Positions 35,611-35,729 of a stretch of 64,000 nucleotides of DNA are shown here, piece by piece. The DNA is from Minisyncoccota bacterium. GTDB taxonomy: Bacteria > Patescibacteriota > Minisyncoccia > Phycocordibacterales > UBA9973. Under the pieces are notes generated by a model. That model was given only the letters and a program-made list of their open reading frames with translations, was not told the DNA's origin and did no database searches. Both the position numbers and the translations under genes were made by a program. The DNA is taken from the NCBI GenBank assembly GCA_041657885.1, contig JBBABB010000001.1, positions 198,926 to 262,925 on the forward strand, read 5' to 3'. Position 1 is the first letter of the stretch, and each line of letters begins with the position of its first letter.

Positions 35611-35729
35611 ATCCCGTACGAAGCTTTTATGGCTAAAACGGGAAGTAAAAAATAAAGTATTATTTATGTCGAGTTTATTAGGTTAATTTAAGTAACGGAA
35701 ATGTAAACATTTCCTGCTTCGTACGGGAT
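35611..35729 (+). repeat. 119-nt inverted-repeat-bounded element, copy 2; 3' end overlaps the atpF ATG
   Basis: ATCCCGTACGAAGC...GGAAATG-taaa-CATTTCC...GCTTCGTACGGGAT. Confidence 0.7.

Follow-up and report, generated by a model that had tools for sequence, protein, structure and literature searches.

The bacterial MITEs and small repeats that come closest to the element considered here are the Correia elements of Neisseria, the enterobacterial ERIC/IRU sequences, the pneumococcal RUP elements and bcr1 of Bacillus cereus. These favour TA or comparable target sites, lie mostly in intergenic regions and may face either way; to our knowledge, none of them lands precisely on start codons, rebuilds the ATG or is locked in orientation. 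Several further groups invite comparison. The REP/REPIN sequences, which are moved by RAYT, are imperfect palindromes of 20-40 nt with a 5' GTAG, are arranged as inverted doublets in extragenic positions and leave no target duplication. The palindrome-associated elements derived from IS200/IS605 have neither terminal inverted repeats nor a duplication and lie 3' of a fixed tetra- or pentanucleotide. Integron attC sites have the form 5'-RYYYAAC ... GTTRRRY-3' and are found at the 3' end of the cassette ORF, and the IS607-type serine-recombinase elements cross over at a GG dinucleotide and show no clear terminal inverted repeats.

The element that we describe is closest to the bacterial MITEs, and departs from them in its target, in its orientation and in the repair of the codon that it strikes. 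It shares with Correia, ERIC/IRU, RUP and bcr1 a length of about 100-150 bp, a non-coding character and terminal inverted repeats that form an RNA hairpin, as well as a short duplication, several copies per genome, presence or absence among relatives and insertion within transcription units. Unlike them it is fixed in orientation (62 versus 0, see below), whereas DDE transposition with symmetric ends would be expected to yield either orientation. We rejected a REP/REPIN identity, as the tips read ATCCCGTWWGA, pairing is confined to the ends with no palindrome in the interior, and a duplication is present. Derivation from IS200/IS605 was likewise set aside on account of the perfect inverted arms and of the real duplication seen against empty sites; and an integron attC site on account of the arms, which carry GTTAGA on the 5' side and TCTAAC on the 3' side, i.e. 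in the reverse order, and of the position of the element ahead of a gene start.

The window that we analysed is a stretch of 64,000 nucleotides from a Minisyncoccota bacterium (proteins matching those of the window are labelled Candidatus Paceibacterota at NCBI). Between its atpE and atpF genes lies element copy 2 (35611..35729, plus strand), which is 119 nt long including the terminal AT on each side, with a core CCCG...CGGG at 35613-35727. Its two arms, ATCCCGTACGAAGC (35611..35624, plus strand; the 5' strand of the P1 stem) and GCTTCGTACGGGAT (35716..35729, plus strand), are 14 nt each and perfectly complementary. The first-pass annotation had recognized here a repeated inverted-repeat element whose 3' repeat overlaps the atpF ATG at 35728, and both observations stand: the 3' arm finishes with the A and T of this ATG (35728-35730), and the arm 14-mer occurs six times in the 64-kb window at up to two mismatches, against a shuffled expectation of 0.11, with none of 100 shuffles reaching six. 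Its description of a long stem that includes the start codon is right as to the stem and needs narrowing as to the codon, since the stem covers the A and T, i.e. part of it. The length shared with copy 1 (12544-12662) and the identity of about 78% given there are borne out as well, both copies being 119 nt with an ungapped identity of 94/119 (79%). As RNA, copy 2 is predicted to fold at -40.2 kcal/mol, compared with -22.7 +/- 3.3 for shuffles (z = -5.3; none of 200 shuffles equal), and the predicted duplex energy of the 14-bp stem is about -26 kcal/mol.

Two short frames and a second hairpin complete the local geometry. The upstream ATGGA of the duplicated target (35607..35611, plus strand) marks the former position of the start codon and opens a leader ORF of nine codons, MDPVRSFYG followed by a stop (35607-35636, plus strand); the downstream ATGGA (35728..35732, plus strand) is the working start of atpF (35728-36219). 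An alternative-frame ORF of 69 aa with a TTG start (35477-35686, plus strand) overlaps atpE out of frame and continues into copy 2, and is therefore spurious, as had been supposed. A sub-terminal hairpin, GGAAATG-TAAA-CATTTCC (35697..35714, plus strand), is separated by a single base from the 3' arm. The pairing of its stem is kept in other copies despite altered sequence: GTTCTG/CAGAAC in copy 3, GGAAATC/GATTTCC in the L008 type and GAGAATC/GATTCTC in L026.

Two further copies and a remnant are present in the window. Copy 1 (12544..12662, plus strand) sits at the start of murG, whose ATG is at 12661, with ATGAA flanks at 12540-12544 and 12661-12665. Copy 3 (about 61305..61427, minus strand), with the arms CCCGTAAGAAGT and ACTTCGTACGGG differing from perfect pairing by one mismatch, has its end right at the start codon (ATG) of an ORF of 71 aa (61091-61306). 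The remnant is a solo 3' arm, ACTTCTTACGGGAT (43926..43939, plus strand), with no adjoining ORF start. In the sampled stretches the element thus precedes about 5% of genes (three of roughly 55 in the 64-kb window).

Two scans delimit the family. The genome scan, which covered one genome per species and asked for two 11-nt arm cores 80-110 nt apart, recovered 44 loci, nearly all of them in Patescibacteria (Saccharibacteria, Paceibacterota, Nomura-, Yanofsky- and Wildermuthbacteria); they include one Acidobacteria match, seemingly due to chance, and one tRNA gene between arms. The metagenome scan, in which ATGAAT-CCCGT...ACGGG-ATGAA was fixed and the remaining arm positions were left free, recovered at least 120 loci. 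No element copies were found in the viral contigs scanned, and carriage by phages was accordingly set aside. Directly 3' of the element there is an ATG with an ORF of at least 40 aa in 41 of the 44 genome copies, and among the metagenome matches listed 113 of 120 copies open a reading frame that is 50 aa or longer or else continues to the contig end. The genes behind the elements include: rpoC, leuS, ssb, ligA, ftsH, prf (release factor), lepA, pilB/pilC, the H+-pyrophosphatase, mltG/yceG, murG and atpF. The loci hold 2175 ATGRA sites in about 0.39 Mb, and start sites are a small fraction of these, so the concentration at start codons is far above what sequence preference alone would give. None of the Rfam 15 covariance models matches the element at the gathering score, and relaxing E up to 10 gives noise only; a literature search, including the arm sequences as queries, returned nothing on it. 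The copies belong to a large and apparently undescribed family of mobile hairpin elements in Patescibacteria that target start codons and are locked in orientation.

A few loci depart from the standard form. One element of 275 nt (L038, 4320-4594, minus strand) has the same arms at a gene start, with no ORF and no Rfam match. In L010 two variant-arm elements, CCCGAACGAAG/CTTCGTTCGGG and CCCGTACGAAG/CTTCGTACGGG, are interleaved at a single gene start (3960-4220), and the same locus has two mini-hairpins of 48 nt (4975-5022 and 7827-7874) with the same arm cores and the flanks GGGGTCAAC/GTTGAC. Two Logan contigs that start inside the element (L048, L049) were considered as transcript ends and proved to be assembly breaks in the hairpin.

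Across the family the element cores are 98-127 nt long and non-coding, entered only by leader frames of 9-29 codons, and the terminal inverted repeats pair perfectly over 14-17 bp, counting the AT at the tip. Throughout the family the 11 outermost nt of the arms keep the sequence ATCCCGTWWGA (ATCCCGT-TA/AC-GA): arm core positions 1-9 (CCCGT-TA/AC-GA) are nearly invariant, and positions 10-12 and beyond are variable yet complementary. Arm positions 6-12 covary, with 197 double-change cells versus 75.7 in shuffled data (none of 500 shuffles as high), and the arms no longer pair once they are shifted out of register. In L067, L069, L083, L089, L124 and L141 the 3' arm recurs in a form with one extra A (TCTAAACGGG), which amounts to a bulged stem base. 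The inner 70-95 nt are AT-rich and subfamily-specific, and no common inner fold was found, the copies having 1-4 inner helices that differ among them. A conserved 5'-proximal alternative hairpin (AUCCCG...CGGGAU) was discarded, since only about one copy in four to one in three has it, as was a tRNA-like or ribozyme fold, for which there was no Rfam or ARAGORN match and only the 1-4 variable inner helices. In one case the content itself is a tRNA: in L019 (917-1026, minus strand) a tRNA-Ser(CGA) gene lies directly between the arms CCCGTACGAAGC and GCTTCGTACGGG, which would lengthen its acceptor stem by about 12 bp; this is the sole such case, one of the 57 tRNAs in the fetched loci.

The flanks have the consensus ATGRAT upstream and ATGRA downstream. 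Upstream, 32 of 41 copies are counted with ATG and three with GTG or TTG; the leader-frame count gives 32 of 41 with ATG, GTG or TTG, and in nine of the 41 a start codon is lacking there. The position-4 purine (A or G) is identical on both flanks in 29 of 29 copies, and the flanking repeat is therefore a real target duplication. It is present also at the non-consensus target ATGTA and at the non-ATG targets ATAAA and TCAA, hence has its origin in the target sequence and does not travel with the element. In the three copies with GTG or TTG upstream the downstream codon is ATG, and therefore the A of the new ATG is supplied by the element. Because the tips of the element themselves read AT...AT, the length of the duplication is ambiguous within 2-5 bp: it has a G-purine core and may span 2 bp (GR), 4 bp (TGRA) or 5 bp.

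The comparison of filled and empty sites is most direct at murG. Four relatives whose MurG is 87-92% identical (L055-L058) have clean empty sites, in which the ftsW-murG spacer is 22-25 nt and reads ...AAGTTATAAT-TAAGAT-ATGAAAAT..., i.e. TATAAT-N6-ATGAAAAT; the filled site of the window reads ...CTATTAT-AAGGAT-ATGAA-T[CCCG...115 nt...CGGG]ATGAA-AATA. As aligned, the relatives are cleanly empty at this point, and the window has a short stretch of target in duplicate. At atpF, the element is missing from the atpE-atpF spacer of L053, L054, L059, L060 and L061 (AtpF 91%, 88% and 86% identical in the closest relatives found, 85-91% among relatives overall), including two with an identical AtpE (L053 and L054), and the elementless genes begin ATGGATTCACTT or ATGGAATCACTA. 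In the closest relative found (L059, AtpF 91% identical) the first 61 nt of the spacer are conserved, followed by ...TTATTTAAAAC-ATGGATTCACTT. The conserved part takes in a hairpin after atpE, CGATGCTCCGGC-TATG-GTCGGAACATCG (35554..35581, plus strand), which belongs to the native spacer outside the element and is retained in L059 with compensatory changes. About 31 nt beside the insertion also diverge from L059, so the atpF site is less clean than the murG one. Copy 2 itself is identical in three independent assemblies of the same organism.

The start of murG is occupied by family members in three lineages (L129, L164 and the window, 12544-12662). The elements of the orthologous pair L129 and L164 are 89% identical, compared with 62% identity at the third codon positions of murG, and their upstream flanks are unalignable; the copy in the window is of another subfamily. 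The conservation between L129 and L164 hints at selection on the element or at recent independent insertions.

The orientation of the elements is uniform. Pairs with strongly similar inner sequences are in the same orientation in 42 cases and in opposite orientation in none in the genome set, and the count relative to the gene is 62 versus 0 for the combined 161 copies, within subfamilies. No shared asymmetric inner feature open to selection was found among the copies, and we therefore judge the orientation to be set at insertion, by a process that would sense the polarity of the asymmetric core in the target. A 5'-proximal CGGG(AT) repeat is found in only about one copy in four to one in three. 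An internal promoter was examined as a cause of the lock and rejected: copies 1 and 2 have no sigma-70-like site on the sense strand, and -10-like hexamers are equally frequent on both strands in the 161 copies. A one-way terminator that would act in the wrong orientation was also rejected, as the signal is weak and confined to copy 1 and hence is not general. As for an autonomous partner, no recurring transposase or recombinase ORF was found near 164 copies, in about 1.07 Mb of loci. Long arm pairs considered as an autonomous element were chance matches, and the ORF clusters that recur near elements are housekeeping genes.

The best overall reading, to which we give a probability of roughly 0.8, is that of a non-autonomous, orientation-locked mobile family, about 100-125 bp long, non-coding and specific to Patescibacteria (CPR), that inserts at start codons. 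At atpF, the comparisons show that the element inserted at the start codon and duplicated a short target, now visible as the ATGGA repeat; as its end reads ...CGGGA(T), an ATG was rebuilt flush with the 3' arm, and the gene kept its start codon. The same event took place at murG and at a third gene of the window. Well over 150 further gene starts, in genomes and metagenomes, have been entered in this way, without exception in a single orientation relative to the gene. The element would be moved in trans by a predicted enzyme that reads the conserved 11-nt tips (ATCCCGT-TA/AC-GA), a mobility to which copy number, empty sites and the duplication are the only pointers. The locked orientation together with the asymmetric duplicated core favours a polarity-aware, recombinase-like insertion, which we would prefer to classical DDE cut-and-paste. 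In a hypothetical circular intermediate, the arms would flank the core as arm-ATGRAT-inverted arm, much as in a lox, dif or att site: like the core sites of lox, FRT, dif and attP, such a circle junction would consist of inverted arms of about 11-13 bp around a short asymmetric core. By this analogy the asymmetric core would explain both the strict orientation and the identical short sequence at the two junctions; unlike recombinase core sites, however, the targets of the element have no recognisable arms.

The genes of the window bear on how such an insertion might be tolerated. Their starts show no Shine-Dalgarno signal; in its place a box resembling TAnAAT occupies -12 to -7, with G at position -14, a signature that suggests many leaderless mRNAs. 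A -10-like box lies 5-8 nt ahead of the upstream ATG in 19 of 41 genome copies (46%) and in 44 of 116 metagenome copies (38%), compared with 26.5% for the starts of ordinary genes and 13.6% over ATGRA sites as a whole, and many target sites look leaderless in type (TATAAT, 6 nt, ATG). The old ATG opens a frame of 9-29 codons, M(N/D)PVRS..., which reads across the 5' arm and terminates within the element in all copies but one (31 of 32); the stops lie 32-94 nt ahead of the true AUG, and the frames relative to the true ATG are random (12/11/9). If the element is transcribed with its gene, the arms would pair into the 14-bp stem, so that the sequence downstream of the old ATG is locked in the stem and the rebuilt ATG stands at the stem foot with open coding sequence after it. 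With no Shine-Dalgarno signal in these genomes, opening of the last 2-5 base pairs may therefore suffice for initiation, and the insertion might be tolerated even before essential genes, with a probable cost to atpF initiation. Since essential genes carry the element, expression must survive, and we infer that it does so through initiation at the stem-foot AUG after fraying, which is our first choice, or else through cutting of the stem or unmasking by leader translation. An effect of the stem on atpF translation is physically plausible. Two findings hint that the stem may count at the RNA level: the tRNA-Ser(CGA) gene that lies between identical arms in L019, and the conservation of the L129/L164 element, for which recent independent insertions are another possible cause. 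Two other devices were rejected. A split ribosome-binding site, in which a Shine-Dalgarno sequence is bridged to the AUG, does not fit, as genes of the window and the loci show no such signal and the G enrichment near the upstream ATG is modest; and in-frame read-through or ribosome hopping from the old ATG does not fit the frames (12/11/9) or the second codons, which are unmatched at the third base.

Two known arrangements of RNA resemble the predicted transcript. Like the rRNA intervening sequences and processing stems that are removed by RNase III, the element is an insert of about 100-150 nt with pairing ends, sporadic among relatives, and in the tRNA-Ser locus of L019 a functional RNA sits between element arms as in those cases; unlike them, its host would be an mRNA and the insert is at a start codon. 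As in the hairpin of phage T4 gene 38 (SD-AUG) and the CaMV 35S shunt, a stable stem directly precedes the working AUG and brings a potential upstream start or landing point next to it; unlike the split ribosome-binding site of T4, there is no Shine-Dalgarno sequence to bridge, and the G-rich bases by the upstream ATG are weak.

What competes with an orientation-locked insertion at start codons is, above all, an ordinary MITE of the DDE type that enters TNNA-like sites in either orientation and owes the start-codon and orientation patterns to selection alone. Such an element would have the terminal inverted repeats, the short duplication, the non-coding interior, the several copies per genome and the presence/absence polymorphism that we observe, and the duplicated TGAA, TGGA, TAAA, TCAA and TGTA fit a loosely palindromic T-N-N-A target. 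We consider it possible but doubtful: selection would have had to produce an orientation bias of 62 versus 0 within subfamilies, though the inner sequences are heterogeneous and without a selectable asymmetric feature, and to leave 41 of 44 copies at starts, though few of the 2175 ATGRA sites are starts; further, no cognate insertion sequence was found in the searched loci. The inverted repeats around a short AT-rich segment directly upstream of genes, with -10-like hexamers inside it, would also be the architecture of an invertible promoter switch, in which a recombinase flips the segment between the repeats to give phase variation. That a switch is at work is scarcely credible, as the opposite orientation is absent (62 versus 0), copy 2 is identical in three independent assemblies, the promoter-like hexamers are equal on both strands and the targets are essential housekeeping genes.

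The remaining alternatives concern what the stem does in RNA. The first-pass annotation suggested that, between genes that are normally tightly linked, it could tune the translational ratio of c to b; the element would then serve the atp operon as a cis-regulatory RNA of its own, an attenuator or a translational tuner. The stem is indeed very stable, with two bases of the atpF start codon lying in it, and the products of atpE and atpF are needed in unequal amounts. Yet the premise of tight linkage does not hold in this clade, where the spacers of relatives are 96-137 nt (186 nt here), and the comparison of spacers that had been proposed as a test goes against the tuner: those of the relatives are without the inverted repeats. 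The element is absent even where AtpF is 86-91% identical or AtpE identical, the same family stands before unrelated genes, a separate conserved hairpin is already present after atpE and there is no Rfam match, all of which makes this view very improbable. Its absence from the spacers of relatives and the presence of the family at unrelated genes thus argue against an evolved atp regulator: going by these comparisons, copy 2 is a mobile insertion, a genomic parasite or passenger, and no purpose-built regulator of the ATP synthase operon. Compatible with mobility, and unlikely though not negligibly so, is an RNA-processing cassette, in which a double-strand-specific RNase cuts near the stem foot, as RNase III does in Correia elements, rRNA intervening sequences and the processing stems of rRNA, and leaves an mRNA that starts at the AUG or within a few bases of it, so that a leaderless message is restored. 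This would accord with an AUG that is always flush with the stem, with the many compensatory changes that preserve pairing, with host genes that look leaderless in type, with the tRNA-Ser(CGA) of L019, which must be cut out from between the same arms to function, and with the L129/L164 element, which is far better conserved than synonymous sites. It sits poorly with the length of the stem, 12-17 bp being little for bacterial RNase III to act on, with a wobble bias on the sense strand that is not significant (G:U versus A:C mismatches 8 versus 2-4, few cases) and with the occurrence of such arms around only one of 57 tRNAs in the fetched loci; and cleavage is indifferent to orientation, so the lock would go unexplained. 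The orientation lock is equally unexplained if ribosomes start at the old ATG, with its native promoter and context intact, and in making the short peptide M(N/D)PVRS... open the 5' arm and expose the true AUG, a form of translational coupling that we hold to be quite unlikely. For it speak the upstream ATG, GTG or TTG retained in 32 of 41 copies, a leader frame that spans the 5' arm in full every time and has its stop within the element in 31 of 32 copies, and the -10-like boxes at leaderless distance from the upstream ATG; but in nine of 41 copies a start codon is missing upstream, a mere 4 nt separate the upstream AUG from the stem, which should block initiation there as well, and stops 32-94 nt short of the true AUG in frames of 12/11/9 make termination-reinitiation coupling improbable. 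A more ambitious version, for which the odds are similarly low to those of RNA processing, would make the element a mobile translation-start module for leaderless, Shine-Dalgarno-free Patescibacteria, with polarity-aware homing to the starts of transcription and translation and a stem required in the RNA, either cut to give a 5'-terminal AUG or docked as a helix beside the P site, from where the ribosome would begin at the AUG of the stem foot. A stem required at the RNA level would explain the compensatory pairing and the conservation of L129/L164 above synonymous sites.

On the favoured reading, that of a mobile element locked in orientation and aimed at start codons, this is apparently the first small bacterial repeat to target start codons, to repair the codon it strikes and to be fixed in orientation, a combination that points to an unrecognised mechanism of insertion. 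Its presence before essential genes (rpoC, leuS, ssb, ligA, murG, atpF) is of relevance to gene callers and operon predictions, and it offers a natural experiment on how the ribosomes of bacteria with Shine-Dalgarno-free, leaderless-type genes find an AUG right behind a stable helix. If the L129/L164 pattern reflects selection, to call the element merely tolerated would understate its role. The conserved 11-nt tips are, in addition, a handy marker for Patescibacteria contigs.

The window contains other repeats and insertions as well. A second, unrelated repeat family comprises GC-rich near-perfect palindromes of about 105 nt (…CCCCTCCTTACCAAGGAGGGG…) at 39883-39987 and 41383-41487, directly 3' of the atpG stop and the atpD stop, such that atpD is bracketed by copies that are 88% identical; related sequence is found at 29911-30058. 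Between atpA and atpG (38173-38936) there are three small ORFs of 78, 108 and 70 aa, the 108-aa one with a Bro-N domain, which look like another insertion in the atp operon. Finally, an AT-rich palindrome, AAATTTTAGTAGTT(C/G)(A/G)ACTACTAAAATT, occurs in four copies (1632-1681, 19372-19421, 19839-19880 and 20062-20091), which are probably shared terminator-like hairpins.
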